From NCBI GenBank assembly GCA_934271525.1, contig CAKQRL010000001.1, positions 184,314 to 248,313 on the forward strand: a stretch of DNA of 64,000 nt, in the 5' to 3' direction. Both the position numbers and the translations under genes were made by a program. The notes beneath the pieces are model-generated. The model did not search any database. It saw only the letters and a program-made list of their open reading frames with translations, and was not told the origin of the DNA. Shown here in pieces: positions 6,073-55,072 of this stretch. The DNA comes from an uncultured Rhodocyclaceae bacterium. Its GTDB lineage: Bacteria; Pseudomonadota; Gammaproteobacteria; Burkholderiales; Rhodocyclaceae. Every line of letters begins with the position of its first letter. The first letter of the stretch is position 1.

Positions 6073-6093
6073 TCTTTTTCAAAAAAATCACGG

Positions 6094-6140
6094 GTTGACC
6101 GTGGAACATTGCAGTTTTAAAAAAATCCACGGTAAACGCC
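6094..6140. repeat. palindromic repeat pair (GTTGACCGTGGAA ... TCCACGGTAAACGCC)
   Basis: Inverted arms between tatB and tatA. Confidence 0.85.
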
Positions 6141-6148
6141 GAATTTTT

Positions 6149-6334
6149 TTACGATTTTTCATCGCTAATTTGCTTTTCTGCTGGTTTTTCAGAAGCGCCT
6201 TCTGCCATTCCCTCTTTTAAACCTTTGATGGCAGAACCCAAATCACGCCCAATGTTTGGCAATTTTTTGGTGCCGAAAATCAAGACCACAACCAACAAAA
6301 CAATTAACCAATGCCAAATGGAAAAAGTGCCCAT
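6149..6334 (-). CDS. tatA: twin-arginine translocase subunit TatA
   Basis: 61 aa, [26 protein letters not shown]. Confidence 0.85.
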
Positions 6335-7378: not shown

Positions 7379-8133
7379 TGCCGCACCACAATGCCGCTTT
7401 TGGCTAAAAAATCTTTGGCTTGCCTAATGGTATATTCGCCAAAATGAAAAATAGAAGCCGCCAAAACAGCGTCCGCCTTGCCAAGCAGAATGCCGTCTGC
7501 CAAATGTTGCAAGTTGCCAACGCCGCCCGAAGCGATGATGGGAATAGGCACAGATTCTGATATTTTGCGGGTGAGCGCCAAATCAAAACCATTTTTGGTG
7601 CCGTCACGATCCATGCTGGTTAAAAGAATTTCACCGGCGCCGCGCGCGGCGACTTCCTTTGCCCAAAGAATGGCGTCAATGCCCGTGTCGTTTCTGCCGC
7701 CGTGGGTAAAAACGTGCCATTTTTCATTGCCGCATTGCTTGGCATCAATGGCAACCACAATGCACTGTGCACCAACTTTTGAAGAAGCTTCGTCAATTAA
7801 ATCAGGATTTTGAATTGCCGCCGTGTTGATGGAAACTTTGTCTGCACCGGCATTCAACAATCGGCGCACGTCTTCAATTTTGCGCACGCCGCCGCCAACT
7901 GTTAAAGGAATAAAAACCTCGCGCGCGCAAGATTCAACAACGTGCAAAATAATGTCGCGCTCGTCTGATGATGCCGTAATATCCAAAAAAGTCAGTTCGT
8001 CGGCGCCCATTTGCCCGTATTGTCTAGCGATGGCAACGGGTTCGCCCGCGTCTTTCAAATCCACAAAATTGGTGCCTTTGACCACGCGGCCAGCGTTTAC
8101 ATCCAAGCAAGGAATAATGCGTTTGGCTAACAT
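7375..8133 (-). CDS. hisF: imidazole glycerol phosphate synthase cyclase subunit HisF
   Basis: 252 aa TIM barrel, [12 protein letters not shown] ... typical HisF sequence. Confidence 0.95.
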
Positions 8134-8136
8134 TTT

Positions 8137-8877
8137 TTAAAACGCTCGGCGAACAACGGCAATGGTTTTGAGCGCCTGCGCAAAATCAATGGCGCCGTTG
8201 TATAAAGCGCGCCCGGCAATCACGCCTTTAATTGTGCCTGTTAAAGCAAGCGATTCAATGTCGGACAAAGAGGATAATCCGCCGCTTGCAAAAACGGGAA
8301 TTTTTAAGGATTGGGCAAGCTTGTCGGTTGCTTGAACGTTAATGCCTGTCATCATTCCATCGCGCGCAATGTCGGTGTAAATAATGCCAATCGCCCCCGA
8401 ATCTTCAAAGCGTTTGGCGCATTCCAAAACGCTTAAATCGCTTAATTTTGCCCAGCCGTCTGTGGCAATTTTGCCGTCTTTGGCATCCAAACCGATGATG
8501 ATTCGATTGGGAAACTCTCGGCAGGCTTCTTTCACAATGTTGGGGTTTTGCACGGCAACCGTGCCTAAAATTACCCATTGCACGCCCCAATCCAACACGT
8601 TTTCAATGGTTTTTAAATCGCGAATGCCGCCGCCCAATTCCACAGGAATTTTGCCGTTTAAGGTTTTGAGAATGTTTAAAATCGCTTCTTTATTTTGCGG
8701 CGTGCCAACAAAAGCACCGTTTAAATCCACCAAATGCAAGCGTTCTGCGCCTTCGGCTTGCCAGCGCGCCGCCATTTCTTCTGGTTTATCAGAAAAAACC
8801 GTGGCATTGTTCAGCTCGCCTTGCTTTAAACGCACGCAAGAACCGTCTTTTAAGTCAATTGCAGGAATAATTAGCAT
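8137..8877 (-). CDS. hisA: ProFAR isomerase HisA
   Basis: 246 aa, [12 protein letters not shown]. Confidence 0.9.
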
Positions 8878-8895
8878 TGTTCAGATTTTTTAAAT

Positions 8896-8946
8896 CGCCG
8901 TGAAAAACCGCATTTTACGAAAAAAATCAGCGTTTACCGTGGAAAA
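8896..8946. repeat. palindromic repeat pair (degenerate arm GCCGTGAAAAACCG + GCGTTTACCGTGGAAAA)
   Basis: Between hisA and hisH. Confidence 0.7.
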
Positions 8947-8950
8947 TTGC

Positions 8951-9556
8951 TCAAAACTGCCATTGCGTAAAATTTTGCATCAATTTTAAGCCGTGTTCCG
9001 CGCTTTTTTCGGGGTGAAACTGCACGGCAATGCAGTTGTTGGCAATGATGGCGCTGGTGAAATCATCTGAGTAATTGGTGGTTGCGGCAACAATATTTTC
9101 AGAGGTTTGAACAAAAAAACTATGCACAAAATAAAAACGTGAATCCTGCGCAATGCCTTGCCAAATGGGATGCTCAAAACTTTGATGCACCGTATTCCAA
9201 CCCATATGCGGAATTTTGAAGTCGGTTGGCACTTGAAAACGCTTCACCTTGCCTTTAAAAATGCCAAAACCTTGGGTATTGCCTTCTTCGCTTGTTTCAA
9301 AAAGCATTTGTAACCCCAAACAAATGCCCAAAAATGGCTTTGTTTTGGCGGCATTCAAAATGGCGTTTTGAATGCCGCGCCTTTTGATTTCAGCCATGGC
9401 ATCAGGCAAAGCGCCTTGGCCGGGAAAAACCACGCGGTCAGCAGAATCAATGGTTGAGGCGTTATTGGCAATTTTAATTTCTTCATTTGTAACGTGCCGC
9501 AAGGCTTGGTAGACCGAGCGCAAATTGCCAAAGCCGTAATCCACAATGGCAATCAT
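8951..9556 (-). CDS. hisH: imidazole glycerol phosphate synthase glutaminase subunit HisH
   Basis: 201 aa class I glutamine amidotransferase with catalytic Cys (GICLG) and HPE. Confidence 0.9.
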
Positions 9557-10143
9557 AAGGCGCCTTTGGTGCTGGGCACGTCTTTGACGCGCGAGTCTAT
9601 GGCCATTGCCATTTTCAAGGCGCGCCCAAAGGCTTTGAATAAACTTTCCGCTTGGTGGTGTGCGTTTTCACCTTTGATATTGTCCAAATGCAAAGTGATG
9701 GCGGCGTGATTCACAAAACCTTGGAAAAACTCACGCACCAGTTCAGAATCAAAATGACCGATTTTTTGCGCCGTGAAGTTGCAGGAAAAATACAAACCCG
9801 GGCGACCAGAAATATCAATCACCGCGCGGGACAAACTTTCATCCAAAGGCACATAAGCAAAGCCATAGCGCGTAATGCCTTTTTTGTCGCCTAATGCACT
9901 GCGAAAAGCCTGCCCCAACACGATGCCGATGTCTTCTACTGAATGGTGGTCGTCAATGTGCGTGTCGCCCTTGGCGATGATTGTTAAATCCACCAAAGCG
10001 TGGCGCGCAATTTGGCAGAGCATATGGTCCAAAAAAGGCACGCCGCTGTTGATTTCTTGGCTTCCCGAGCCATCCAAATCGATTACCACGCTGATTTGTG
10101 TCTCATTTGTGTTGCGGCTTACATCCGCTCGGCGTTGTTTCAT
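9553..10143 (-). CDS. hisB: imidazoleglycerol-phosphate dehydratase HisB
   Basis: About 196 aa from [15 protein letters not shown] with a GGAG Shine-Dalgarno upstream. The track ORF is longer by 10 codons. Confidence 0.9.
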
Positions 10144-10155
10144 TTTTTTCTCCTT

Positions 10156-10198
10156 TTTTCCACGGTAAACCAAAATTTTTTTGGTTTACCGTGGATTT
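10156..10198. repeat. palindromic repeat pair (TTTTTCCACGGTAAACC-AAAATTTTTTTG-GTTTACCGTGGATTTTG)
   Basis: Inverted arms between hisB and ccmI. The TAA inside the second arm is the ccmI stop codon. Confidence 0.9.
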
Positions 10199-11403
10199 TG
10201 TAGTCTTTCAATTTCTTGTCGCAAATAATTCGGCATTGTGTTGGTGATTTTGAGATATTGCACCTTGTCTTCAAAAAGCGCATCGTAAAAAAGCACCCAA
10301 GGATTTTGCGCATCCGCCGCTTTGGCTGATTCTAAAAAACTTTTTGCCTTGGCTAAATTGTTGTTGCGCCAAAAAGTGCCCGCCACAATCGCTTGCAGTT
10401 GTGCATCGTTTTTGGGAATTGCCGATTCTGCCGCAGTGAAAATTTCCAGCGCCAAATCATAACGGCGCAAATTGTGTGCGGCTTTGCCCAAAATGAGCAA
10501 AACGGCTTGCGATTCGGCACTTGGCGCAGCATTTAAAATTTTATCTTTTAAATCAATAACTTGGGCGATTGCCGCGGATTCATCATCCGCTGACAATTCG
10601 CCTTGGCGGATTTTAATGTCGGCTAATGTGTTTTCAATCATCGCCACAACGCGCGGGTCGTGGTTGGTGGTTTTGGCTTTTAACAACAATTCTTTGGCAC
10701 GTTGAATGTCGCCTTTTTCAAGCAGTGCGTAACCCAAAAAGAGCAGGGCGCGCGGGTTTTGGGAATCAATAGAGGCGGCGCGCTCCAACATTTTTAAAGG
10801 TTCACCCAAAAAACTGCCTGTTTTATTCCACAAAGCGCTTGCGTAAAGACTCAACAATTCGGCGTTTTCAATGTTTAATTGTTCTACGGCGGGCAAAGTT
10901 TCAAGGGCGCGGTCAAATTGTTCTGCGTTTTGCAATTCCATTGTTAGCGCAACAATATCGGCAAGCGCTTTTTCATCCTTTGGGTTTTCTTTTAAAGCGG
11001 CAATCAATTGGTTCTGGCTGAATTGAATCGGGTCGCGCAATTCCAAACTCAAAGCATTGGGGTTGCCCCACAAAAAATAAAGAAAAAGGGTGAATAAAGG
11101 CAAAATAAATAATAAAACCCAAGCTGTGGCAATCGCAGGTTGCCACGGTTTGGGCGAATCGGATGAAATGGCTTCTTCAAGAACGCGTTTTTTTAAATCC
11201 GCTGTTGCTTCTAAAAATTCCGATTCGCTTAAAACGCCTGCGGTTTTTTTGTATTTTAGTTTTTTCAGCTGGGTGCGCAAAATTGCCAAGTTGTCGTTGA
11301 AATCTTGGGTTTTTGGCGGAATAAAAAACGCGCGAAATAACACAAAAAAAACGCCTGCCAAAAGCAAAAACGCCAAAAAAGCAAAAAGCAAGACTTCACT
11401 CAT
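10186..11403 (-). CDS. ccmI: c-type cytochrome biogenesis protein CcmI/CycH (TPR)
   Basis: N-terminal transmembrane segment then TPR-like repeats. Last gene of the ccm operon. Start set at MSEVLLFAFLAF. Confidence 0.7.
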   Translation of the reverse strand: MSEVLLFAFLAFLLLAGVFFVLFRAFFIPPKTQDFNDNLAILRTQLKKLKYKKTAGVLSESEFLEATADLKKRVLEEAISSDSPKPWQPAIATAWVLLFILPLFTLFLYFLWGNPNALSLELRDPIQFSQNQLIAALKENPKDEKALADIVALTMELQNAEQFDRALETLPAVEQLNIENAELLSLYASALWNKTGSFLGEPLKMLERAASIDSQNPRALLFLGYALLEKGDIQRAKELLLKAKTTNHDPRVVAMIENTLADIKIRQGELSADDESAAIAQVIDLKDKILNAAPSAESQAVLLILGKAAHNLRRYDLALEIFTAAESAIPKNDAQLQAIVAGTFWRNNNLAKAKSFLESAKAADAQNPWVLFYDALFEDKVQYLKITNTMPNYLRQEIERLQNPR

Positions 11404-11836: not shown

Positions 11837-12416
11837 TTTGTAACTCCGCAATGGCGGGGAGAATTTTATCTTTTAAAACATCTGCGGTGATTGGTCCCAA
11901 ATGTTTGAAGCGAATGGTGTTGTTGGCATCTATCAAAAAGGTTTCAGGCACGCCATAAACGCCGTAATCTATGCCGACTCTGCCGTTTAAATCCAAAACG
12001 GATAAGGTATAAGGATTGCCACGTTCTAATAGCCACGCATTGGCGCGGGTGGTGGCTTGGATTTTTTCATCTTCTGGTGAAATTTTAGAAGAATCAATGG
12101 TTGCATCGCCACGAATTTCTTTGTAATTCAAACCGATGATGGGAATATTGCCGTTATTTTTTGCAAACTCAACCAACACGGAATGTTCCACGCGGCAAGA
12201 CACACACCAACTTGCCCAAACGTTCAAAAGCCAGATTTTGCCTTTCATTTCAGCTGGGGAAAACGCGCGCGTATCGTTTAAAACAGGCAAGCGAAAATCA
12301 GGCGCAGGTTTGGCAATTAAAGCGGATGGAATATCGCGCGGGTTGAGCGTGAGCCCCATGCCCAATAAAATGACCAACAGCAAAAATGCGCCAAACAACA
12401 AAAAATAACGATTCAT
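11826..12416 (-). CDS. ccmG: thiol:disulfide interchange protein DsbE/CcmG
   Basis: Thioredoxin-fold WASWCVSCRVEH, 196 aa. Confidence 0.85.
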   Translation of the reverse strand: MNRYFLLFGAFLLLVILLGMGLTLNPRDIPSALIAKPAPDFRLPVLNDTRAFSPAEMKGKIWLLNVWASWCVSCRVEHSVLVEFAKNNGNIPIIGLNYKEIRGDATIDSSKISPEDEKIQATTRANAWLLERGNPYTLSVLDLNGRVGIDYGVYGVPETFLIDANNTIRFKHLGPITADVLKDKILPAIAELQNAS

Positions 12417-14323
12417 TTTTTAGCCTTTAAAAATGCGAATAAACCGCCGATTGCCATCAACAGCGCACCAGCCCACAACCATGAGATAAAGGGTTTGTAA
12501 TAAACGCGCACAATCCAAGCGCCGTTGGTTTTTTCTGCATGGGCAGGTTCGGCAAGTGCTACGTAAATATCGCGCAAAATGTTGGCGTTGACGGCGGCTT
12601 CGCTCATTGGCATTGCAGAGGAATGGTAATTGCGTTTTTCAGGGTTGAGTGTGGCGATTTTTTGATTGTCTTTTTCCAACCAAAATTCGCCAACATAGGC
12701 GGTGTAATTGGGGCCTGTTTTTTGTGTAATACCTTTAAAAATCACCGAATAATCGGCAATTTCAACGTGATTTTCCACGGTCAACACCACATTTTTTTCA
12801 ATTTCAAAGGTTGAGACCATTGCCGCGCCAAGCACAAAAACCGCCACACCCAAATGCCCCAGATGCATACCCAAAAAATCCAAGGGCAAAGGCGCTTGAC
12901 TTTGTTTGATGCGGTTAAAAATATGCGCGAGTGCGCCAAAAAAAATCCAAAAAGCCAAAAACAACGCCAAAAAACTTGTGGTTTGGAATTTTTTGTAAAT
13001 GGCTAAAAGGGCAGTGGCGGCAACAAGGCTTAAAACAAAAGGAATTGCCAATTTTTTAAGAATGGGGGATGAATCCGACTTTTTCCAGCGCAACCACACG
13101 GCAATGCCGATAAAGAACAATAATGGAAACACAATCGGCACGAATACGGCGTTGAAGTAGGGCGGCCCAACGGAGATTTTTCCCCATTGCAAAGCGTCTA
13201 TTAAAAGCGGATACAAAGTGCCCAACAAAACCGTGCCGCAAGCAACGACTAATAAAATATTGCCTAAAAGTAAAAAACTCTCGCGTGAGATGAGCGAAAA
13301 CCGCGCGCCCAAGCCCACTTTTGGTGCGCGTAAGGCAAATAAAAATAAGGATGAACCGATGACAAGGCTTAAAAAAATCAAAATAAACACGCCGCGTTTG
13401 GGGTCTGTGGCAAAGGCATGAACGGAGGTTAAAACGCCCGAGCGCACCAAAAATGTGCCTAACAACGACAAAGAAAACGCCGAAATTGCCAACAACACCG
13501 ACCAATTTTTAAAACTGCCGCGTTTTTCCGTAACAAGCAAGGAATGCAAAAGCGCCGTGCCGATGAGCCACGGCATAAAAGAAGCGTTTTCTACTGGATC
13601 CCAAAACCACCAGCCGCCCCAGCCGAGTTCAAAATATGCCCACCACGAGCCAACCGCAATGCCAAGCGTTAAAAAAATCCACGCCAACAAGGTCCAAGGG
13701 CGTGATTTTTTAGCCCATTCTGTGTTGACTTTGCCTGAGATGAGCGCCGCCACAGCAAAGGCATAAGCCAAGGAAAAACCGACATAACCCATATAAAGCA
13801 AAGGCGGGTGAATAATCATTCCAATATCTTGCAAAAGCGGATTCAAATCGCGCCCGTTGAGTGCCATTGGCAACAAGCGATTAAAAGGGTTGGAGCTTGC
13901 CAAAATAAAGAGCAAAAAACCAAAAGAAATCAGCGCCAACACGCCCAACACCTGCGCACGAAAAAAGGGTGGAATGTTTTTGGAATTGCAAACAAAGGCA
14001 GCGCTCCACCAGCCCATCATCACAATCCAGAGCAAGAGCGAACCTTCATGCCCGCCCCAAATTGCCGCGAATTTGTAAAAAGCAGGGAGATTGTTGCCAG
14101 AATTTTGGGCAACGTATGCCACGGAAAAATCATCCGTTAAAAAAGCAAAAGCCAAGGCAGCAAAGGCGATTGTGGTTAAAAACGAGAGCGCCAAATTGGC
14201 GGGCGCTGCAAAATTCACCCAAGCCAAGCGGCCTTTTTGCGCGCCCAAAATCGGCAACACGCCCGCAGGCAAAGACAAAACCAATGCCAACACCAAGGCA
14301 AAATGTCCGAATTCAATAATCAT
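12413..14323 (-). CDS. ccmF: cytochrome c heme lyase subunit CcmF
   Basis: 636 aa polytopic membrane protein with a WGGWWFWD tryptophan-rich motif. Confidence 0.9.
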
Positions 14324-14781
14324 TGTTGTGGTTTTTCTTGTAAGGTTTTTGCCAGCCCCCGCGCGTGTGCTTCTCCTAGTGCTTGGGCGGCTTCGGGCGG
14401 CATATAGTTTTCATCGTGTTTTGCCAAAACTTCTTGCGCCACAAATACGTTGTTTTCAATTCTGCCTTGCGCCACAACGCCTTTGCCTTCCGAAAACAAG
14501 TCGGGCAGAATGCCTTGGTAAATCACGGGAATATCGGTTTCGGTATCCGTTACCACAAAGTTTATTTTTAAGGAATTGGCTTCTCTTTTAACTGATTCAT
14601 TTTTCACCATACCGCCCAAGCGAAAAACTTTGTTTTTTGGTGCTTTGCCAGCGGCAATGTCGGTGGGCGAAATATAAAAGGCAATGTTGCTGTTTAAAGC
14701 ATTCAAAACCAAAGCGGCAATAGCGCCCAAAATGGCAAGTGCCACAGCGATGATGATTAGTTTTTTGTGGCGTAGTTTCAT
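14320..14781 (-). CDS. ccmE: cytochrome c maturation heme chaperone CcmE
   Basis: 153 aa, N-terminal transmembrane segment, conserved FRLGG and heme-binding region. Confidence 0.9.
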
Positions 14782-14782
14782 T

Positions 14783-14800
14783 TTTCCACGGTAAACAAAT
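14783..14800. repeat. single arm of the palindromic repeat (TTTTTCCACGGTAAAC) between ccmD and ccmE
   Basis: Immediately upstream of the ccmE start codon, inside the operon. Confidence 0.8.
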
Positions 14801-14814
14801 AATTTTTTTGAAGT

Positions 14815-14997
14815 TTAAAAGTCGCTCAAATGAAAAACTTTGATTTTTTCCAAAGTTTTGCGTGATTTTAATTTTAAAAGAACGACTTCTAGCGCCATTC
14901 CCAAAGCTGTTGCGCTCAAAGCGCCCCAAACGTATAAAGCATAACCGCCCATTGCAAAAAAGTCGGATACATTATTCCAATAAGGTGTGAGATTCAT
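14815..14997 (-). CDS. ccmD: heme exporter protein CcmD
   Basis: About 60 aa single-transmembrane peptide (MNLTPYWNNVSDFFAMGGYALYVWG...) between ccmC and ccmE. The longer track ORF overlaps ccmC. Confidence 0.6.
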   Translation of the reverse strand: MNLTPYWNNVSDFFAMGGYALYVWGALSATALGMALEVVLLKLKSRKTLEKIKVFHLSDF

Positions 14998-15737
14998 TTG
15001 GTTTCGCCTTTTACAACGATTTTTTTCACCCATTCGCTTGCCATTTCGCGCTCCAAAATAATGCGCCGCACGCGCATTAAGCTTGTGGCAAAGGCATACA
15101 TCCAAAAGGCAAGCGACATCAACAACATTGCCCACAACATAATTGCGGCAATGGAAGGCGTTTTGCCGATTGCCACACTAGCGCCTTGGTGCAAGGTATT
15201 CCACCATTTGACCGAAAAATAAATAATCGGCACGTTGATGACCCCAACCAAAAGCAAAATTGCGCCTGCTTTATCCGCGCGCCTGACATCATCAATTGAT
15301 GCAATCAATGCCCAATAGCCGATATATAAAAATAACAAAATCAATTCCGATGTTAGCCGTGCATCCCAAACCCACCACGTGCCCCACATGGGTTTGCCCC
15401 AAAAAGCGCCTGTCCAAAGGGATAAAAATGCCATCAAAGCGCCTGTGGGTGCAATTGCGCGGGTCATCATTGCCGATAATCGCGTGTTAAACGCCAAGCC
15501 AATTGCCGACCAAAAAGCCATTACCACATACAAAAACATACTCAGCCACGAGGCAGGCACATGCACGAAAATAATTCGGTAGCCTTCGCCTTGTTGAAAA
15601 TCAATGGGCGCAACAATTAAGCCCAAATACAAACCCGCCGCAGCAAAAATAAACGCCAACACCCAAAAAATTGGAATGAGTTTTCCAGCCAAAGGATAAA
15701 AGGTTGCGGGGGAAGAAAAATAATAAAGTGATTTCAT
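14994..15737 (-). CDS. ccmC: heme exporter protein CcmC
   Basis: 247 aa with the WGxxWxWD motif (WGTWWVWDARL). Confidence 0.9.
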   Translation of the reverse strand: MKSLYYFSSPATFYPLAGKLIPIFWVLAFIFAAAGLYLGLIVAPIDFQQGEGYRIIFVHVPASWLSMFLYVVMAFWSAIGLAFNTRLSAMMTRAIAPTGALMAFLSLWTGAFWGKPMWGTWWVWDARLTSELILLFLYIGYWALIASIDDVRRADKAGAILLLVGVINVPIIYFSVKWWNTLHQGASVAIGKTPSIAAIMLWAMLLMSLAFWMYAFATSLMRVRRIILEREMASEWVKKIVVKGETK

Positions 15738-15741
15738 AACG

Positions 15742-16407
15742 CTATTCTAAGGCTAATTTTAAAGCGGCGGCACAGGCAAAGGGCGACAAAGAAAAAGCAG
15801 CAAGTGCCATTGCGGCAATTAAGGACAAATGCGCATCAAAAGCCATTTGGTCAAGTGCGGCATCTACTGCCAGCGCACCAAAGATTAAAACGGGAATATA
15901 CAAAGGCAAAATAATCAAAGACACCAACACGCCGCTTGATCGCAAACCCAAAGTTAGCGCAGCACCAATTGTGCCGATGGCTGATAACGCTGGCGTGCCG
16001 ATTAAAAGCGTTAGCATTAAAACAAGCAAAGCATCAAAAGGCAAATCAAATTGAATGCCCAAAATTGGAGCGATAACACCCAATGGCACGCCTGATAATA
16101 ACCAATGCGCCGTTGTTTTTGCCAACACCACAAAAGGCAAGGGCAAAGGCGACAAAGCCATTTGCGCCAGTGTGCCGTCAGCAAAATCATCCGCAAAAAG
16201 CCGAGGCAACGACAACAAAGTTGCAAGTAGTGCGGCAACCCACAAAATGCCCGGCGCCAAACGTTGCAACAGTTTTAAATCGGCACCAACGGCAAGCGGA
16301 AAAAGGCTTGCAACCATTATGAAGAAAAACAAAATCGCCCAAATGTCTGCGGCTCTTCGGCACGCCAACAAAAAATCCCGCGCGATGATTTTCAAAAAAA
16401 TGGCCAT
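15742..16407 (-). CDS. ccmB: heme exporter permease CcmB
   Basis: About 221 aa from MAIFLKIIARDF. The track ORF's 48-codon N-terminal extension runs into the repeat array. Confidence 0.8.
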   Translation of the reverse strand: MAIFLKIIARDFLLACRRAADIWAILFFFIMVASLFPLAVGADLKLLQRLAPGILWVAALLATLLSLPRLFADDFADGTLAQMALSPLPLPFVVLAKTTAHWLLSGVPLGVIAPILGIQFDLPFDALLVLMLTLLIGTPALSAIGTIGAALTLGLRSSGVLVSLIILPLYIPVLIFGALAVDAALDQMAFDAHLSLIAAMALAAFSLSPFACAAALKLALE

Positions 16408-16697
16408 TGTTAAAATTTTTTTTGGTCTACCGTGGAAAAGCGCCGATTCTACGAAAAAACAGCGGTTTTTTAAAAAAAATCGGCGTTTACCGTGGAAAAA
16501 CGCGCTTGAAACGAATTGGCTGAAACGTTTTTTAAAAAATGTGGTTTTCAATGAAAACGCCGATTTTAACGAATCAAAAAAGCAGAAAACGAGATTTTGC
16601 GCGTTTGTTTTTCAAAAAAAATTTTTGTTTACCGTGGAAAAACGCCGATTTTAAAGAATCAAAAAATTAAAAAAAGCGTGTTTTGAAAGCGATTTTT
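16408..16697. repeat. tandem array of about 3-4 degenerate direct repeat units, each headed by TACCGTGGAAAA(A/G)CGCCGATT(T/C)TA...GAATCAAAAAA, inside the ccm operon
   Basis: Three same-orientation copies of the core 12-mer (about 16426, 16487, 16626), plus a fourth unit lacking the core (about 16545), in a 290-bp non-coding gap between ccmA and ccmB. Confidence 0.85.
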
Positions 16698-17330
16698 TTA
16701 ATGTGGCGATTTTAAGCGCAAATGCTTCATCGGTGCGCTGGCGGGTTTTAGTCCGTCTATTTTTTGGTGGGAAGTAAAAACCAACAAGCCGCCATTTGCC
16801 GAATGCGCGTTGATTTTTGCAACAAGCCATTCCAATGCTTGCGAATCCAATGCAACAAAGGGTTCATCCAACACCCACAAGCAGCGCGTATCAAAAGCCA
16901 AGCGCGATAAGGCAACGCGCCGTTTTTGCCCTTGGGATAAAAATTTGGCGGGCACATCCAAACGTTTTTTTAAATTGAGCGCACAAAGCGATTGCACTGC
17001 CACATCCAAATGCAAGGCAATGCCTGCAATTTCGGCAGATATTTGCAAGTTTTCCAACGGCGTCAATTCTTCTTTGATGGCGTTGGAATGCCCGATAAAA
17101 CAAAGGTTTTCTTTAAAATCGGGTGATTGGGCAATAGGCACATTGTTCCACAACACGCCTCCAGAATCGGGCGTGGCAAGTCCCAACAAAATGCGCATTA
17201 AGGTTGATTTGCCTGCGCCATTTTCGCCTTCAATGTGTAGCATTTCGCCTGCGGCAAGCGAAAAACATACGTTGTTAAAGAGCGGCAGCGCGCCTCGCCA
17301 ACAAGAAATATCCTGTCCACACAACTGCAT
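16698..17330 (-). CDS. ccmA: cytochrome c biogenesis ATP-binding export protein CcmA
   Basis: ABC ATPase (GENGAGKSTL, LSQGQKRR, VLDEP). Start set at MQLCGQ to match the CcmA length. The track start is a GTG inside the repeat core. Confidence 0.8.
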   Translation of the reverse strand: MQLCGQDISCWRGALPLFNNVCFSLAAGEMLHIEGENGAGKSTLMRILLGLATPDSGGVLWNNVPIAQSPDFKENLCFIGHSNAIKEELTPLENLQISAEIAGIALHLDVAVQSLCALNLKKRLDVPAKFLSQGQKRRVALSRLAFDTRCLWVLDEPFVALDSQALEWLVAKINAHSANGGLLVFTSHQKIDGLKPASAPMKHLRLKSPH

Positions 17331-17365
17331 TTTTTCAAAATTAAAAAAAGAAGGAATTTTAAGAT

Positions 17366-17420
17366 TTTCCACGGTAAACCGAATGTTTTTTTGAAAATTT
17401 TGAAAGGTTTACCGTGGAAA
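17366..17420. repeat. palindromic repeat pair (TTTTCCACGGTAAACC ... GGTTTACCGTGGAAA)
   Basis: Inverted arms with a TTTTTTTGAAAATTTTGAAAG spacer between ccmA and yicC. Confidence 0.9.
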
Positions 17421-18272
17421 TTATTCAATATTTTGCACTTGTTCGCGCATTTGTTCTATGAGAACTTTGAGTTGCATGGCGGCGCTAGTAACCTCGTTTG
17501 AAATGGCTTTGCTTGCCAAGGTGTTGGCTTCGCGCATCAATTCTTGCATCAAAAAATCCAAGCGTTTGCCGTGCGGCGCAGGGCTTTGGATAATGGTTTT
17601 TAAATTTTCAACATGCGCTTTTAAGCGGCTTAATTCTTCTGCGACATCTGTTTTCAAAAGCTGCACGGTAAATTCTTGCACCAAGCGTTCCTCGGGCAAT
17701 TCGGCTGTTGAAAATTCCTTGAAGCGTTTTCGCATTTTTTCTTGCCACAACGCGTTGAGCGCGGGCAGATTTTCGTTTAAAAAGTTTAAAACCTTGTCAA
17801 TGGCAAGCGCTTTTTCTGTTAAAAAAGCAGCCAGTTGCGCGCCTTCGGTTTTTCGGCTTATTTTGAATTGGGCGAATATTTCAGCAAAAAGATTTTGAAT
17901 ATCAACAGCAAAATTGTTCTGCAATTCTCCAACATCTTGCAACACGCCGTCCAAATGCAAGAGTTCATAAGCGCTAAATTCGCGCAAATTGGGCAACTTG
18001 GCAGCCAGTTGCGTTTGCAATTTTAAATAATCGTCAATTGCCGATTCGTTTAAAAGCCGTTTGTTTTTTTGGGTTTCTCGCTGCCAATTAAAAACGATGC
18101 GCACTTTGCCGCGAAACAAATTTTGTTTGCAAAAATTGCGCAAAAATTCTTCCGATTCTATCGGCAATGCATCGCCTGAAAATTCAACGTCTAGCGCCCG
18201 ATGATTGACGCTTTTGATGGTGATTGAAACCGATTCTTTTTTGCCTTCGGCAAAACCTGTCATACTTTGCAT
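17421..18272 (-). CDS. yicC: YicC-family stress-induced protein
   Basis: 283 aa, MQSMTGFAEG N-terminus, YicC_N and DUF1732-like C-terminus. Confidence 0.8.
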   Translation of the reverse strand: MQSMTGFAEGKKESVSITIKSVNHRALDVEFSGDALPIESEEFLRNFCKQNLFRGKVRIVFNWQRETQKNKRLLNESAIDDYLKLQTQLAAKLPNLREFSAYELLHLDGVLQDVGELQNNFAVDIQNLFAEIFAQFKISRKTEGAQLAAFLTEKALAIDKVLNFLNENLPALNALWQEKMRKRFKEFSTAELPEERLVQEFTVQLLKTDVAEELSRLKAHVENLKTIIQSPAPHGKRLDFLMQELMREANTLASKAISNEVTSAAMQLKVLIEQMREQVQNIE

Positions 18273-22170: not shown

Positions 22171-22180
22171 AAAAAAGCAA

Positions 22181-22313
22181 TTTTCCATGGTCAACGCAGA
22201 TTTTTTTTGAAAATTTTAAAAGGTTGACCGTGGATTTTAAGCAGAAAGCATTTGGATTTATTTAAAAAAATCCACGGTAAACGTGAAAAAAATTTGACGT
22301 TTACCGTGGAAAA
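22181..22313. repeat. cluster of four repeat arms (two inverted pairs) in the convergent lolD/cheA intergenic region
   Basis: TTTTCCATGGTCAACGC, GGTTGACCGTGGATTTT, TCCACGGTAAACG, CGTTTACCGTGGAAAA. Confidence 0.85.
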
Positions 22314-22322
22314 TCGTTATTT

Positions 22323-24206: not shown

Positions 24207-24965
24207 TTAAAAGCCAAGGCTATCCAAGAGCTCATCGACTTGTTCTTGATTCACCACCACATCCGTTCGGCCTTGTGCGTTGATGACAGGTCCTTGCAAC
24301 ATACTGCTGACCTCTTCGGTTTTCTTCGTTTCTGGCACAACTTGCAACAAGACGCTCATCAAACTTGTTTCTAGATCTTGGGTAACTTCAATGATTTTTT
24401 TAATCACCTGACCGGTTAAATCTTGAAAATCTTGCGCCATTACAATTTCCATCAACTGCGCGTGCAACATGGCGTTTTTGGTTTTGAGGTCTTCGTTTAA
24501 GAATTTTTTGGTATCCAGCGCCAACTGCCGCAAACCGTTTGAATCCAAGCGATTCGCAAATAAATCATCCCAACGCTTGGATAGCGCCGCCGCAGAATTA
24601 TTCACTTGTTCTAATAACGGATTGGCAATATCCGTGGCGTTTAAAACGCGCCCTGCCGCTTGTTCGGTAAGATTGGCCACATACGCCAAGCGCGCTTTGG
24701 TATCGGGCATAGCCGACATATTTTTTTCTAACATTTTGTCGTAACCCAACTGCCCCAAAGTATCGTGCAAAGAACGGGTCATTTGCCCCAGTTGATTAAA
24801 AACGTTTTCTTGGGTATTAGACCAATTTTCCACGGTAGACGCGGAATTTTTTTGAGAATTGGAAGAAGCGCTCGCGGCAGTTGCAGCAGGCTCAGCGGGA
24901 TGATTGTTGGCAGCAATGGAATCAAATAAGGCTTCTAATTCGTCAGAATCGTTGGTGGCAGTCAT
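24207..24965 (-). CDS. cheZ: CheY-P phosphatase CheZ
   Basis: C-terminal ...DQEQVDELLDSLGF matches the CheZ C-terminal CheY-binding peptide. Sits between cheY and cheA. Confidence 0.8.
   Translation of the reverse strand: MTATNDSDELEALFDSIAANNHPAEPAATAASASSNSQKNSASTVENWSNTQENVFNQLGQMTRSLHDTLGQLGYDKMLEKNMSAMPDTKARLAYVANLTEQAAGRVLNATDIANPLLEQVNNSAAALSKRWDDLFANRLDSNGLRQLALDTKKFLNEDLKTKNAMLHAQLMEIVMAQDFQDLTGQVIKKIIEVTQDLETSLMSVLLQVVPETKKTEEVSSMLQGPVINAQGRTDVVVNQEQVDELLDSLGF
24829..24845. repeat. single repeat arm (TTTTCCACGGTAGACG) inside cheZ coding sequence
   Basis: Encodes ...STVENW... in CheZ. Confidence 0.6.
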
Positions 24966-27415: not shown

Positions 27416-27449
27416 AAAAAAAACGGCGAAGATTTTCGCCGTTTTTTTG
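27416..27449. terminator. rho-independent terminator hairpin (AACGGCGAAGATTTTCGCCGTTTTTTTG)
   Basis: GC-rich stem plus T-run immediately downstream of the thiolase gene. Confidence 0.7.
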
Positions 27450-27465
27450 TTTTGTTTGTAAATTT

Positions 27466-32815: not shown

Positions 32816-33505
32816 ATGATGGCATTAGAAAAAATTTTACAAAAAGAAGGCTTTGGCACGCGCCGCGCCTGCCGCCGTTTGATTGAAAGCGGCGCAGTGA
32901 AAGTTCAGGGCATTGTTTGCCAAAATCCAAGTGCGTTATTTTCTCAAAAAAATTTGCCGTTGACCGTGGAAAACTGCGATTTTTTAGCAAAAGAAAAGGT
33001 CATTTTGGCGTTCAACAAACCCGTGGGCGTGGAATGTTCGCAAAAATCTTTTCACCAAAGCATTTTTTCTTTCATTCCGCAACGCTTTGTTAATCGCGCA
33101 ATCCAGCCGATTGGGCGCTTGGATGTGGCAACATCTGGCTTGATTTTTTTAACAGACGATGGGCAGTTGAATCATTTTTTAACTCTTCCTAAAAACAAAA
33201 TCCCGCGTGTTTATATTGCCGAATGCGCCGAACCGTTGGCAGAAAACGCTTGTGCGCGCTTAAAAAAAGGTATTTTGTTGAAAAACGAAAAAATAAAAAC
33301 CATCGCCGAATCGGCAGAATTGTTGGATGAAAAAACGCTCAAAATTACGCTTTCAAGCGGCAAATACCACGAAGTGCGGCGCCTTGTCGGCGCGCTCAAC
33401 AATCGCGTTGTGGCTTTAAAACGCGTGGCTTTTGGCAAATTTTTTCTACCCGATGATTTGGCGCTTGGCGAATTTTTGGAAATAGAAAAGGATGCAATTT
33501 TATGA
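32816..33505 (+). CDS. rsuA: 16S rRNA pseudouridine(516) synthase RsuA
   Basis: N-terminal S4 domain (LEKILQKEGFGTRRACRRLIESGAVKV) and pseudouridine synthase motif GRLDVATSGL. Confidence 0.85.
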   Translation: MMALEKILQKEGFGTRRACRRLIESGAVKVQGIVCQNPSALFSQKNLPLTVENCDFLAKEKVILAFNKPVGVECSQKSFHQSIFSFIPQRFVNRAIQPIGRLDVATSGLIFLTDDGQLNHFLTLPKNKIPRVYIAECAEPLAENACARLKKGILLKNEKIKTIAESAELLDEKTLKITLSSGKYHEVRRLVGALNNRVVALKRVAFGKFFLPDDLALGEFLEIEKDAIL

Positions 33506-37128: not shown

Positions 37129-37978
<850 letters not shown>

Positions 37979-41919: not shown

Positions 41920-41964
41920 GGTCGGGTTAAGAAAAAGAAAAAAGGTGATTATAAAGATTGCAAT

Positions 41965-42021
41965 TTCCCACGGTAAACTCCAAAAAATTTTGAAAAAAAT
42001 GCGGCGTTTACCGTGGAAAAT
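41965..42021. repeat. palindromic repeat pair (TTTCCCACGGTAAACTCC ... GCGTTTACCGTGGAAAA)
   Basis: The TAA stop of kdsB lies inside the second arm. Confidence 0.9.
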
Positions 42022-42775
42022 CGCGTTTTTTTAAACGGGATTTTAAAATTTGGCGCACATGCTCGGCATCTTCCAAGGTATCCACGCCAACAAAATCGCC
42101 ATTTTTTAAAATGGCCAAGGCAATTTTTTCGCCGTGCCAGAGTGTGCGCAACTGCTCCAACATTTCTATTTTTTCCAAAGGCGATGGCGGCAATTCCAAA
42201 AATCGTTTGACGAAAGCGGCGCGGTAGGCGTATAAGCCGATATGCTTGAAAGCCGCGCAGGGCATGGCATTGGGATTATCGCGCGAGAAAGGAATTGCTG
42301 CGCGCGAAAAATAAAGCGCCTCATTTTTTTGATTGGCAACCACTTTGACGTTATTGGGATTTTGAAAAGCCGCAAAATCTTTAAAAGGTGTTGCCAAAGT
42401 TGCCATTGCCGCGCCAGATTTTTCCAAAGTTGTTGCCACCAAATTGAGCGCTTCGGGGTTCATCAACGGTTCATCGCCTTGCAAATTCACAATGATTTCA
42501 TCATTCAAAAAACCTTGCAATTTCAAGGCTTGCGCCAAACGTTCCGTGCCGTTTTGGTGGTGTTTGTCGGTTAAAACGGCGGCGATGTTGTGTTGCTGGC
42601 AAGTGTGCAGAATTTTTTCATCATCGCAAGCCACCACCACGCTTAGGGCGTTGGATTGCAAAGCAATTTGCGCCACGCGCACAATCATTGGAATGCCGTT
42701 TAAATCAATAAGCGGCTTTTGTGGCAAGCGAGTGGATTCTAATCGCGCGGGAATAAAAACGTGAAAATCAGGCAT
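42008..42775 (-). CDS. kdsB: 3-deoxy-manno-octulosonate cytidylyltransferase KdsB
   Basis: MPDFHVFIPARLESTRLPQKPL N-terminus resembles E. coli KdsB (IIPARYASTRLPGKPL), 255 aa. Confidence 0.9.
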   Translation of the reverse strand: MPDFHVFIPARLESTRLPQKPLIDLNGIPMIVRVAQIALQSNALSVVVACDDEKILHTCQQHNIAAVLTDKHHQNGTERLAQALKLQGFLNDEIIVNLQGDEPLMNPEALNLVATTLEKSGAAMATLATPFKDFAAFQNPNNVKVVANQKNEALYFSRAAIPFSRDNPNAMPCAAFKHIGLYAYRAAFVKRFLELPPSPLEKIEMLEQLRTLWHGEKIALAILKNGDFVGVDTLEDAEHVRQILKSRLKKRDFPR

Positions 42776-42818
42776 TTTTGAAAAAAATGAAACGTTGACC
42801 GTGGAAAACAGCGAAAAA

Positions 42819-43376
42819 TCAGGGTTTTTTCTGCGCAGATTCGGGTGATTTTGCTGATTCGTTGGATTTTTCCATTTTTGCCAACGATTCTTTTACCGCA
42901 GCGGCAATGCCTTGGGTAGAAGTTAAATTGATTTTAAGCGTAGCGCCTACAAAAGCGCGTTGGTCGGGCGTGTATTCGCTAAACGACGCGCTGCGCGCCA
43001 ACAAGGCGTTGACTTCGTCATTCAATTTTTTGTATTTGCGCTCAAAATTTTTGCCGCTCAATTTGGCTGCATCTGAGGCGATTTGTTGTTCTAATGCCAT
43101 ATCTTCGGGCGACACTGCGGCAATGTAGTGCGCCATTTTTTTCATAATCTTGGTGAAATCGGCGTCAATTTTTTTTAAATCTTCTGTTGTCATTTTTTTA
43201 TTAAGCCGCTCCAAAAGAGCGCTCAACTCGGCTTTTAAAGCGCGGTCTTCTGCCATACTTAAAGATATTGGCAGGTTTTCAATTGCCGCTGCGGCTTTTT
43301 TTTCTGCCGAATTGTTTTGCTCTGCAAAAACTGGCAATGCCAAAAATGCGGCGCACAAAATTGCAATGGTTTTCAT
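42819..43376 (-). CDS. periplasmic hypothetical protein, possibly DUF1311/LprI-like (lysozyme inhibitor fold)
   Basis: Signal peptide (MKTIAILCAAFLALPVFA). Helical region with the same arrangement as the neighbouring lipoprotein. Confidence 0.4.
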   Translation of the reverse strand: MKTIAILCAAFLALPVFAEQNNSAEKKAAAAIENLPISLSMAEDRALKAELSALLERLNKKMTTEDLKKIDADFTKIMKKMAHYIAAVSPEDMALEQQIASDAAKLSGKNFERKYKKLNDEVNALLARSASFSEYTPDQRAFVGATLKINLTSTQGIAAAVKESLAKMEKSNESAKSPESAQKKP

Positions 43377-43390
43377 TTGAAATCTCCTTT

Positions 43391-43936
43391 TTAATAAATG
43401 CGTTGTTGCAAAGATTGCTGTGCAAGTGTTGCCATTTTTAAGAAAATGGCTTCAATGCCAAATTGAAATTCGGATGCCAAATAATTGCGTTCATCCAAAG
43501 TGTAATCGGCAAAATTTTTGTTCAATTCCAAGTTGGCTTGCAAAATTTCCATCTCGTTTTTGAATTTTTTGTTAAAACCTTCTTCGCCCAATTTTTGGCG
43601 TGCGTCTGCCAAATCCCACAATTCGGTTGGTTTGAGCGCCAGCACATAACGTTGCCAAAATGCCGCGCGGCGTTCCATTTTTTTGGCGTATTCGCTTAAA
43701 TCTTGCGCGTGCATTTGCAAAATGCCCTCAGAACCTCGGCTTGTTACTTCGCCCAATTCTTTGTAAAAAGCTTGAAATTCGGTTGTAGATAAAGCCTGCG
43801 GCAAATCGCGCGCTGTTGATTTTGTTGCGGTGTAAGGAATTTTGGCAACCGTAAAGTTTTCCGGTTTTTCATAAGTGGGCGCTGATGCGCAAGCCACAAG
43901 AATGCTTGCTGCAAAACCCAAAAAAATATTTTTCAT
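43391..43936 (-). CDS. lipoprotein, paralogous to the preceding gene
   Basis: Lipobox LVAC-A (MKNIFLGFAASILVACASA). Similar length and helical pattern as 42819-43376. Confidence 0.4.
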   Translation of the reverse strand: MKNIFLGFAASILVACASAPTYEKPENFTVAKIPYTATKSTARDLPQALSTTEFQAFYKELGEVTSRGSEGILQMHAQDLSEYAKKMERRAAFWQRYVLALKPTELWDLADARQKLGEEGFNKKFKNEMEILQANLELNKNFADYTLDERNYLASEFQFGIEAIFLKMATLAQQSLQQRIY

Positions 43937-43982
43937 TCAAGATTCCTTTTTCAAAAAAATTTTCAGTTGACCGTGGAAAAAA

Positions 43983-45809
<1,827 letters not shown>

Positions 45810-45832: not shown

Positions 45833-48800
45833 GTGGAAAATTCCAAAAATTTGCCAAACTTGCCGATTTTTGAAAAGGAATCGGCGATTGTTGCCGCATT
45901 AGAAAAAAATCAAGTCGTTATTGTTGCCGGCGCCACAGGTTCGGGCAAATCCACGCAACTTGCCAAAATTGTTTTAAAAGCAGGCTTGGGGCAGAAAATT
46001 GCCCACACGCAACCGCGCCGCTTGGCGGCAAGAACCTTAGCCGCTCGGGTTGCTGATGAATTAAATATGCCAATAGGCAGCGGCGTGGGTTTGGAATTGC
46101 GTTTTGTAAATGAAACAAGCGAGAATGATTGTATTACTTTTTTAACCGATGGTTTATTACTTTCTAAAATAACGCGCGATAAACTTTTAAATCAATACGA
46201 TACCATTATTATTGACGAAGCGCACGAGCGGAGTTTGAATATTGATTTTCTCTTGGCGTATTTAAAAATTTTAATTCAAAAACGCAAAGATTTAAAAATA
46301 ATTATTACCAGCGCCACGATTGATACCGATAAATTTTCAAAACATTTTAATAATGCACCGATTATTGAAGTATCAGGCAAGTTATTCCCCGTAAATATTC
46401 ATTATTTAAATGAAGAAATGGCGAATGTGGATTTGTTAGAAAAAACAGCCGATATTGTAGAAAATTTAAATGGTAAAAAAGGCGATATTTTAATTTTTTT
46501 AGGGGGTGAAAAGGATATTGCAGAAACAATTAAAATATTGCGCAAACGCCCAAGTTTGAAAAACATGGAATTTTTGCCGCTTTATGCGCGATTAGCGCCA
46601 CAAAAACAAGCGCGGGTTTTTGAATTATCAAAAACACAACGCGTGATTTTGGCAACCAACGTGGCCGAAACTTCGCTCACTGTGCCGAATATTCGCTTTG
46701 TGATTGATTGGGGTTTGGCAAGAATCAAACGTTACGCTTACCACCAAAGAATTGAACGCCTGCCGATTGAAAAAATTTCGCAAGCCTCGGCAAATCAACG
46801 CGCAGGGCGCTGCGGGCGACTTTCAAGCGGCGAATGTTTTCGGCTTTATACCCAAAGCGATTTTGAAACTCGCCCCGCTTTTACGCCGCCCGAGATTTTG
46901 CGCGCAAATTTGGCGAATGTGGTTTTAAAAATGCGGGCATTGCATTTTAATAATACGGATTTATTTTTGGAATCTCCGCCTCAAAAAGCGTGGAGCGATG
47001 CGGAAAAAACCTTAAAAGAATTGAATGCTTTAAATGAAAATAACGGTTTAACAAAAATAGGAAAACGTTTAGCCGATTTGCCCATTGACGCGCGGCTTGG
47101 ACGCATTTTATTAGCAGCGGAACATTTAAATGTTTTAAATGAAATGCTAATTATTGTTGCTGCTATTTCTGTGCCTAATTTATTAGATGAAAATCCACGG
47201 TCAACTGAATATTTTTTTGAAAAAAATAATCCGTTTACCGTGGAAAAACAGCGTTCTGTTTTTATGGATTATTTATCATTATGGAATAAAAGAAAAAACA
47301 ACCATTCGCCAAAGTTTAAAGAATGGAGTGAGATTTATTTTCAACTCAAAAAAATATTTCAACCGAAAAAATCTGTTTTAAAATCTGCCCCAGATTTTTA
47401 TAAAAAAATACACGGCGCGATTTTAACCGGTTTTTTGGGTTTTATCGGCTTTAAAAGCGATGAAAAAGGTTTATACCAAGGCGTTAAAAATCTGCGTTTT
47501 TATTTGCACCCGAAATTAACAATTAAAAATCCACCGCGTTGGATTGTGGCAAACGAGTTGGTTGAAACAAGCCGACTTTTTGCCAGCGCCTTTGCGCAAA
47601 TTGAACCCGAATGGATTGAATCAGCGGCTTATAACTTAATTCAAAAACAATTTTTGGAACCGCATTGGGAAAAAAAATCGCAAGCCGTCATTGCTTATGA
47701 AAAAATTACGCTTTGGGGTTTAACGATTATTCCCAAACGGCGTGTTTTGTTTGGAGAAAAAGATAAAGCATTGTCGCGCCAAATATTTATTCAAAATGCC
47801 TTGGTACAAATGGATTTGCCTGTGGCGTTTTTAAACCGATGGGCATTTATTCAAAATAATTTAAAAATTATTCAAAAAATAAAAGAAATGGAAATAAAAC
47901 AACGGCGGCAAGATATTTTAATTGATGATAGTTTGATTTTTGATTTTTACAATGCGCATATTGATGCCAATGTTTATGATTTGAAAAGTTTTGAAGTGTG
48001 GTTGAAACATAACCCCAAAACGCTATTTTTATCGCAAAAAGATTTGATGAATCACCAAGCCAATGGCATAACCAATGAAAAATTTCCATCCTTTTTAAAA
48101 ATTGGTGAAAAAGCATATCCCTTGATTTATAACTTTGCGCCCAATGATGCAATGGATGGCGTTACTATTCAAATACCGCTATTGGATTTAAAAAACATTC
48201 CCTCCAAATGTTTGGAATGGTTGGTGCCCGGACTCATTAAAAACAAAGTATTGTTTTTGCTCAAAAGCTTGCCGCAAAAATACCGCGTGAAGATTCAACC
48301 ATTAGAAACTTTTACTGATGATTTTTTGGCAAAAGAAGATTTAAATTTAAACGATGGCATTGTTTTTAATCTTATTCAATTCATGCGCACAAAATACGCT
48401 TTTGAATCGCGAGGGTGGGCATTAAATGAACAACTTTTTCGCACAGAGAACCTGCCGCATTATTTTTTGATGAATGTTGAATTATTAGATGAAAATAAAA
48501 ATCGCTTGGCACTCTCACGCAATATTGATGATTTAAAAACACAATTTAAAGAATCCGCCAAAAAAGTGTTTGTTGCGCATATTCCAAAAGAAGAAACACA
48601 AGATTTTAAAAATTGGGATTTTGGCGATTTGGATGATTTGATTGAGTTAACCATCGCTGGCGAAAATGTGATTGGTTATCCAGCTTTGTGTTTTGAAAAA
48701 AATCGTTTGTTTTTAAACGTTTTTGATGATTTGGATTCTGCTACTTTGAATCATAAAATCGGTTTGTTGGAATTATTTCAGCGCGTTTTGAATGTTTATA

Positions 48801-53498: not shown

Positions 53499-53525
53499 AA
53501 AAAAGCCTCTTTGGAGGCTTTTTTT
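53499..53525. terminator. rho-independent terminator (AAAAAGCCTCTTTGGAGGCTTTTTTT)
   Basis: GCCTC/GAGGC stem plus T-run after the cytochrome c gene. Confidence 0.85.
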
Positions 53526-53539
53526 GTGGTTGGAATCAA

Positions 53540-55016: not shown

Positions 55017-55054
55017 CGAAAAACGGCGTTTTTTGGAAAAACGCCGTTTTTTTG
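55017..55054. terminator. rho-independent terminator (AAAAACGGCGTTTTTTGGAAAAACGCCGTTTTTTTG)
   Basis: Stem ACGGCGTTTT/AAAACGCCGT plus T-run downstream of the phasin gene. Confidence 0.8.
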
Positions 55055-55072
55055 AATTGTTTCAAAAAAATT

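Follow-up and report, generated by a model that had tools for sequence, protein, structure and literature searches.

The genes ccmA, ccmB, ccmC, ccmD, ccmE, ccmF, ccmG, ccmH, and ccmI were identified by Pfam matches and are all encoded on the minus strand of the window, the 64-kb stretch of DNA that was analyzed, which has a G+C content of 44%. The part of the operon around the ccmA-ccmB junction contains the following features.

16698-17330, minus strand: ccmA, 210 aa, Pfam ABC_tran; its last codons (...CTTAAAATCGCCACATTAA) are array unit U0 with a decayed core, as seen when U0 is aligned to the remaining units and to the junctions of relatives
16408-16697, minus strand: the ccmA-ccmB spacer, which is the repeat array, noncoding, 290 nt, 32% G+C
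15742-16407, minus strand: ccmB, 221 aa, Pfam CcmB over residues 4-217
14994-15737, minus strand: ccmC (Pfam)
About 14815-14997, minus strand: ccmD (Pfam)
14781-14814, minus strand: single repeat unit filling the ccmD-ccmE spacer before the ATG of ccmE; identically placed and oriented in the sister lineage L085
14320-14781, minus strand: ccmE (Pfam)
12413-14323, minus strand: ccmF (Pfam)

The stop codon of ccmA and the start codon of ccmB are separated by 290 nt. In 79 other betaproteobacterial ccm loci, the median distance between the two genes was +1 nt, and the distance was between -8 and +33 nt in 68 of these loci, indicating that the split is unusual, as an earlier note on this DNA had claimed. 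Four independent metagenome assemblies of the species (99.1 to 99.8% identical to the window) contain this array with an unchanged number of units, and it is therefore not an assembly artifact. The unit number was equal in all five copies of the species examined. Tandem Repeats Finder did not detect the ccm array because its units are too diverged, and an Rfam scan of the whole 64-kb window gave no match. The reading frame of ccmB is open upstream to a TTG at 16551, which would yield a protein of 269 aa. This N-terminal extension was rejected, since it is encoded by the repeats and the 221-aa form already has the start of the Pfam CcmB domain at its residue 4.

Three exact copies of TACCGTGGAAA are located in the spacer, at 16428, 16488, and 16630 on the plus strand, and share one orientation. 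The core of a fourth unit, 16519-16577, is decayed, but the unit is an 82% direct repeat of the 45 nt after the 16630 core. The same-orientation repeat array described in the earlier note is thereby borne out, and a profile search of the window agreed with its statement that this is the only tandem direct array of the element there. The proposed anatomy of the unit held in part: the beginning TACCGTGGAAAA(A/G)CGCCGATTYTA agrees with two of the three intact units, and the proposed end GAATCAAAAAA is present twice. The copy reported between ccmD and ccmE is real; it fills the 33-nt spacer and abuts the ATG of ccmE. Alignment of the units divided the array and the end of ccmA into five copies.

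16663-16724, minus strand: U0, formed by the 3' end of today's ccmA, a decayed core, and a T tract
16578-16662, minus strand: U1, an intact-core copy of the junction module, with TACCGTGGAAA at 16630-16640 (plus strand)
16519-16577, minus strand: U2, a copy with the decayed core TTTTCATTGAAAAC, hypervariable between strains, 82% over 45 nt
16457-16518, minus strand: U3, a copy with an intact core at 16488-16498 (plus strand)
16402-16456, minus strand: U4, a copy with an intact core at 16428-16438 (plus strand), abutting the ccmB ATG (16407)

The five copies are 55 to 85 nt each and have diverged to 62 to 82% identity. U0 to U4 align with one another and with the single-unit junctions of the relatives L088 and L085 over the ccmA-terminal GTTA(G/A)AATCGGCG, the core, and the T tract, and the copied module includes the last 15 to 20 nt, approximately, of ccmA. 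The decayed core of U0, CCACATTAA, provides the stop codon of ccmA, and the tail of U3, GCCGATTTT, pairs with the head of U4. U4 is almost identical to the single-unit junction of L088, where the ccmA-ccmB spacer is 25 nt and the ccmA stop codon TAA lies inside CCACGGTAA. The spacer of L085 is 33 nt (TAA-AAAAATCCACGGTCAAC-TTG-TTTTTTTTCAAAA-ATG) and holds one unit in the same orientation as in the window. Because the modules align including the ccmA 3' end, the array is best described as a tandem duplication of the whole junction and not as a series of insertions.

The earlier note had raised the possibility of an insertion hotspot, which these junctions contradict: sister lineages already carry one unit in the same orientation at this place, and the array aligns as tandem copies of everything from the ccmA 3' end onward. 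In the comparison with related genomes that it suggested, the two sister lineages have 25 to 33 nt of one unit, not a repeat-free spacer. With moderate confidence, and as a single reading together with an uptake-like repeat and an array that has no dedicated role, we interpret the 290-nt spacer as the ancestral ccmA-ccmB junction amplified locally in tandem. This junction would have consisted of the last ccmA codons, one repeat unit of about 35 nt, and the ccmB start. Slippage or unequal crossing-over between the A/T tracts may have multiplied the module, after which two cores would have decayed and three would have been kept.

A second same-orientation array was found in L155 (7038-7170, three perfect copies of 46 to 47 nt), and two copies are located at the same place in L208 (3698-3779), indicating that such duplications do occur and vary in copy number. 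They are rare, with two arrays of at least three same-orientation units in about 1.06 Mb of lineage DNA and same-orientation neighbors in 9 of 152 close neighbor pairs. The ccm array resembles tandem duplications of the VNTR type in its 55- to 85-nt units, its homopolymer-tract bounds, and its divergence, as does the sister array in its variable copy number. It differs in that its copy number is constant in five strains and its copies are old enough to have reached 62 to 82% identity. U2 (16519-16577) showed more than 20 differences from the corresponding segment of L083 and L084 (9150-9205), strains that are approximately 99.5% identical elsewhere. Judged from the sequences, import or conversion would account for the divergence of U2 better than point mutation, and the variability of this unit suggests either little constraint or import by recombination.

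The earlier note had proposed that hairpin or attenuator structures in the spacer could tune the expression of the operon. A dedicated structure of this kind was not supported. The RNA fold of the whole spacer was no better than those of shuffled sequences (z = -1.19), and a scan of the sense (minus) strand within 16408-16697 found no terminator-like site. The three intact cores share one orientation and so cannot form the 15- to 17-bp hairpins of paired units; with such cores the operon would be read through. The start context of ccmB is A/U-rich and without a Shine-Dalgarno sequence, as in the relatives, and ccmB would thus keep its ancestral start region. We infer that the array is most likely a near-neutral duplication without a dedicated regulatory role.

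Some room for attenuation is left by one local hairpin formed by the U3 tail and the U4 head (-20.4 kcal/mol, z = -2.79), which was equaled by 1 of 200 shuffles. It is located 25 nt before the ccmB ATG and is followed by CUUUUCC, a short U run. A weak promoter-like match, TTTAAA-17-TAGAAT, is also present on the sense strand at 16474-16446, inside U3/U4. Both elements could give the array some regulatory effect, and the stability of the unit number in the five copies could reflect selection. It is therefore conceivable, but in our judgment unlikely, that an array of the same duplicated-junction origin has been co-opted as a cis-regulatory spacer, in which the U3/U4 hairpin and U tracts would cause attenuation or processing, or an internal promoter would drive ccmB to ccmI, so that CcmA would be uncoupled from CcmB to CcmI. 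The 290-nt gap does abolish the translational coupling that is usual for ccmA and ccmB, and there is an analogue in the REP/BIME sequences of the Escherichia coli malE-malF junction, where repeated extragenic clusters between operon genes are able to change relative expression. The promoter-like matches in the region, however, numbered 11 against a shuffle expectation of 12.6, two sister lineages manage with 25 to 33 nt, one unit is hypervariable between near-identical strains, as expected without constraint, and the similar array elsewhere varies in copy number. Together with the whole-spacer fold and the lack of a terminator-like site in the sense-strand scan, these results speak against such a co-option.

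The unit of the array belongs to a repeat that is present throughout the genome and the lineage, which the earlier note did not recognize. Aligned copies define a unit of about 35 nt: TTTT(C/G)AAAAAAA, approximately six variable bases (N6), and GTT(T/G)ACCGTGGAAAA. The motif has its own core, GTT[T/G]ACCGTGGA; the motif string GTTTACCGTGGAAAA comes with the A tract, and the distal A/T tract is conserved as strongly as the core. With at most one mismatch allowed, the 11-mer occurred 37 times in the window compared to 1.09 expected, a number reached by none of 100 shuffles. A profile search (E < 0.01) detected 55 units in the 64-kb window, 29 on the plus strand and 26 on the minus strand, covering 2.8% of its length. 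The core 8-mer has a density of 0.81/kb, with 52 exact copies versus 43 with one mismatch. The commonest 10-mers of the window all derive from the repeat unit, which is present in 30 of its 47 intergenic regions. In about 1.06 Mb of lineage DNA, 599 units were found, 323 on the plus strand and 276 on the minus strand. The coding share is about 8 to 12%, and approximately 90% of the units are intergenic. Units occur singly in either orientation and more often as inverted pairs that share a central T7(G/C)A7.

In 80 other betaproteobacterial ccm loci, the motif was not found. Scanning metagenome contigs for the pattern yielded 118 unit-dense stretches (about 0.97 Mb) from a handful of assemblies, and a literature search with the motif strings returned only primer matches. 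The repeat occurs in dialects: the ratio of GTTTACC to GTTGACC was 34:12 in the window, and the OARM01 contigs have almost only GTTGACC. Three other identities of the unit were considered and rejected. As a sigma-70 promoter, it would have TTGAAA and TACCGT just 13 nt apart; units also point either way with respect to genes, and some lie directly against start codons. GGAAAA was not accepted as a Shine-Dalgarno sequence, as hisB has its own AAGGAG after the unit. Homology to the terminal repeat of the Correia element was discarded, since the AATCCAC that we take to be common to both has the opposite topology. In public assemblies, ccmA (224 aa instead of 210) and hrpA start at a GTG inside ACCGTGGAAA (window positions 17372 and 45833), and these starts within the repeat are probably annotation artifacts caused by it.

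The lineage of the window groups with Rhodocyclaceae and not with Neisseriaceae. Its CcmC, CcmB, and GuaA are at most 74 to 77% identical to those of named Rhodocyclaceae and other betaproteobacteria among the matches listed, and a CcmC scan of the genome collection gave a best identity of 77% among the matches listed, with no close relative there. The motif-bearing sister lineages are L085/L086/L087 (CcmB 70% identical, 40% G+C), L088 (CcmB 74% identical), and L091 (GuaA 79% identical). The pair upstream of ccmA, the ccmD-ccmE unit, and the unit before hisB are all kept in place and orientation between the window and L085.

The strain and lineage comparisons also revealed three variable sites. 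In L134, a contig of a sister lineage, positions 7600-10400 are 93 to 100% identical to window 42035-45427 over kdsB and most of thiC, with flanks of 55 to 75% identity; the window open reading frame 42819-43376 is missing from this contig, and the repeat pair 41963-42022 marks the left breakpoint. This mosaic is either a recent interlineage replacement or a chimeric contig. The window and L082 differ from L081, L083, and L084 by an 8-nt indel (AAATCTGA-like) at window positions 8878-8886, just upstream of the his gene 8137-8877. An (AG)16 tract at 37133-37164 directly follows the ATG at the 5' end of a plus strand gene. In strain locus L089 the same gene has (AG)11 and encodes a 279-aa Methyltransf_21 (FkbM-type) protein. 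The 10-nt difference shifts the frame, so that the gene looks switched off in the window, and it is likely, from these tracts, to be phase variable by slipped-strand mispairing.

The units located inside genes bear on how the repeat spreads. Full in-frame units were found in four genes of the window.

12769-12803, minus strand: full unit in ccmF (11 residues), gapless against 20 homologues
24825-24860: unit in the linker of cheZ
32939-32973: unit in rsuA, between the S4 and catalytic domains
47194-47248: complete inverted pair in hrpA

The forward units in ccmF, cheZ, rsuA, and hrpA are all translated in one reading frame, giving ...KNxxxTVE(N/K)... The gap test that was applied to USS by Redfield et al. 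(PMC1626085) was used to compare such proteins with their homologues. CcmF aligned without gaps with 20 betaproteobacterial homologues, which have EKDVRMxxGDTV where the window lineage and L085 have EKN(V/L)VLTVEN. RsuA was gapless across its unit, SQKNLPLTVEN, when compared with PDB 1vio_A residues 5-225. A unit is located within the cytidylate kinase domain, the length of which is normal, and HrpA showed a net difference of +2 aa from E. coli HrpA. The gapless coding copies indicate that the units arose in place by amino-acid-changing substitutions and not by insertion, which also speaks against the hotspot proposed earlier, as the repeat family does not appear to have been spread by insertion. 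Of the 599 units in the 1.06 Mb, 73 are located deep within long open frames, 31 of them in a single frame, (E/Q)K(N/K)xx(L/F/S)TVE(N/K). Coding units were found in linkers of RpoD, FtsK, RNase E, YidC, CheZ, RsuA, and others. The repeat would thus arise by point substitution even in genes, where it would force amino acid changes.

In 124 of 152 neighboring unit pairs, the orientation was minus-plus. The hairpins predicted for such pairs have stems of 15 to 17 bp and are far more stable than shuffled sequences (z = -6.8 to -8.7). Two of these pairs flank the ccm genes.

17364-17421: inverted pair between yicC and ccmA, 15-bp hairpin, -22.5 kcal/mol, z = -6.8
10156-10195: compact inverted pair separating ccmI from hisB, with a 17-bp hairpin of z about -8.5 and the T tail antisense to the operon

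A T-rich tail was present on at least one side of 207 of 273 pairs, compared to 128 of 365 single units. Between convergent genes at 22171-22322 there are two pairs, each with its T tail on the strand of the gene that it follows, and pairs inside operons (4981 and 10156) have the T tail on the antisense strand. From orientation, fold, and tails, the inverted pairs at gene ends are predicted to be the stems of intrinsic terminators. The head-to-head arrangement was found in 19 of 152 close neighbor pairs. One example is at window 6074-6156, where two units with the cores facing each other and the A tracts outside occupy a divergent intergenic region. GC-rich stem-loops with T runs that are not built from the repeat are located beside repeat units at 27418-27450, 53500-53527, and 55018-55056, indicating that the genome also uses conventional terminators.

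The features of the repeat correspond to the hallmarks listed for the uptake sequences USS and DUS (PMC2817400, PMC1626085, and a 2025 preprint). The repeat has about one copy per kb, far above chance, without orientation bias (0.81/kb; 29 to 26 in the window and 323 to 276 in the lineage). It originated by mutation in place and not by insertion in CcmF, RsuA, cytidylate kinase, and HrpA. It is underrepresented in genes and, within them, prefers one frame and permissive regions, with an intergenic bias stronger than in the known cases, and it forms dyad pairs at gene ends that are putative terminators by their orientation, predicted hairpins, and T tails. The coding share of USS and DUS is 34 to 65% (PMC2817400), compared to 8 to 12% here, indicating that the repeat is far more intergenic than known uptake sequences. 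We consider it a balanced and moderately confident reading of the sequence data that the repeat is not a mobile element and behaves like a DNA uptake sequence, with the array as a junction duplication that has no dedicated role. A sequence of this kind would recur about once per kb in both orientations, and its inverted pairs would serve as the stems of intrinsic terminators. We infer the uptake function from this footprint.

No competence genes were found within the 64-kb window. A ComEC gene with Pfam Competence, DUF4131, and Lactamase_B domains is present in the sister-lineage contig L200 (5457-7853, minus strand), and its beta-lactamase-fold part contains an in-frame inverted unit pair (FSTVNFEKNLNFEKKLALTVEN). 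In the single example of foreign DNA, an Eco57I-type N6-methyltransferase/restriction island at L091 3111-6929 lies between conserved genes; the following 137-nt spacer is without a unit, and the neighboring spacers have units.

An abundant DNA-binding protein, either nucleoid associated or genome structuring, or another non-uptake DNA signal would offer a different explanation, which we regard as improbable but not negligible. Selection would then maintain a site every 1 to 2 kb, and the ccm array would be a cluster of three sites. Such selection would leave the same signature of origin in place and the same orientation independence. Coding copies are indeed located in long genes (hrpA and ccmF), where intergenic sites are far apart, and an A tract that is conserved would lend itself to DNA bending or to contacts in the minor groove. 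To our knowledge, however, no protein site of approximately 13-nt specificity occurs at about 1 per kb, which counts against this explanation. The exact cores outnumber the one-mismatch cores, which is unlike ordinary protein-binding sites (PMC1626085). The repeat also agrees with uptake sequences in every detail of its terminator pairing, dialects, and reading-frame bias.

That the repeat is a selfish element of the REP/REPIN or MITE type, moved by a transposase and with the ccmA-ccmB junction as an insertion hotspot, is very improbable despite its mostly extragenic location, high copy number, strong consensus, and frequent inverted doublets. Coding copies add no protein length, single units lack palindromy, and target duplications were not seen. 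Units occupy the same places in the same orientation in lineages with CcmB only 70% identical. The 64-kb window encodes neither a transposase nor a RAYT, and the array units carry flanking ccmA sequence and are therefore segmental duplications. Each REP is itself palindromic, and REPs are tied to RAYT transposases. The repeat differs from REP/BIME in having nonpalindromic single units, array units of one orientation, and family members that also evolve in genes without added length; the missing palindromy, the lack of a RAYT in the window, and the gapless coding copies place it outside the REP/REPIN-RAYT families. The MITE class does not fit either, given the lack of target duplications, the position and orientation kept across lineages, and the strain comparison, in which no unit-sized indels were found between strains of the species.

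The uptake-like repeat is most similar in layout to the USS of Pasteurellaceae (Hin-type AAGTGCGGT and Apl-type ACAAGCGGT). The two are alike in having approximately 0.8 copies/kb in both orientations, with exact copies at least as numerous as one-mismatch copies, and in their origin by point mutation, reading-frame bias, and dyad pairs as terminators. In both, the core is GC-rich and is flanked by AT-rich segments on just one side. Written in the USS orientation, the unit is TTTCCACGGT(A/C)AAC-N5-TTTTTTT(G/C)AAAA, and its core ends in CGGT like that of USS. The USS core ANNNGCGGT with its two AT-rich segments is not found here, however, as the repeat has CCACGGT where USS has GCGGT (A instead of G). 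USS are 35 to 50% intergenic compared to approximately 90% for the repeat, the distal A/T tract of which is far more conserved. The host here is a betaproteobacterium.

The DUS of Neisseriaceae resemble the repeat in their betaproteobacterial host, in dialects in related species, in inverted-pair terminators, and in coding copies in permissive protein parts. The DUS are 10- to 12-mers related to GCCGTCTGAA with a CTG core, whereas GTT(T/G)ACCGTGGAAAA has no CTG and aligns with no listed dialect. The DUS are also without flanking AT motifs, unlike the repeat (PMC1626085). By its motif, the repeat is a member of neither the Neisseriaceae DUS family nor the Pasteurellaceae USS family.

Uptake sequences have been described in only two families (PMC1626085 and the 2025 preprint). 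Tentatively, the uncultured low-G+C lineage near Rhodocyclaceae may be a third group, after Pasteurellaceae and Neisseriaceae, with a genome saturated with uptake sequences that have their own core, dialects, and a Pasteurellaceae-like layout, and the ccm array may be a by-product of the drive that keeps the motif. The eye-catching repeats within this obligate operon are best understood as a duplicated junction and not as a regulator. The array itself is of modest interest, and the interesting part is the repeat family, which is a candidate for a third kind of uptake sequence in a new lineage. The origin of uptake sequences is debated, both between molecular drive and selection and between convergent and divergent evolution. 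If the interpretation is true, these questions would gain a natural replicate in a third independent lineage, which differs in the core and shares the layout and genomic footprint. It would also provide a concrete motif for uptake and pilin-binding assays and would predict natural transformation with a preference for self-DNA in this uncultured group.
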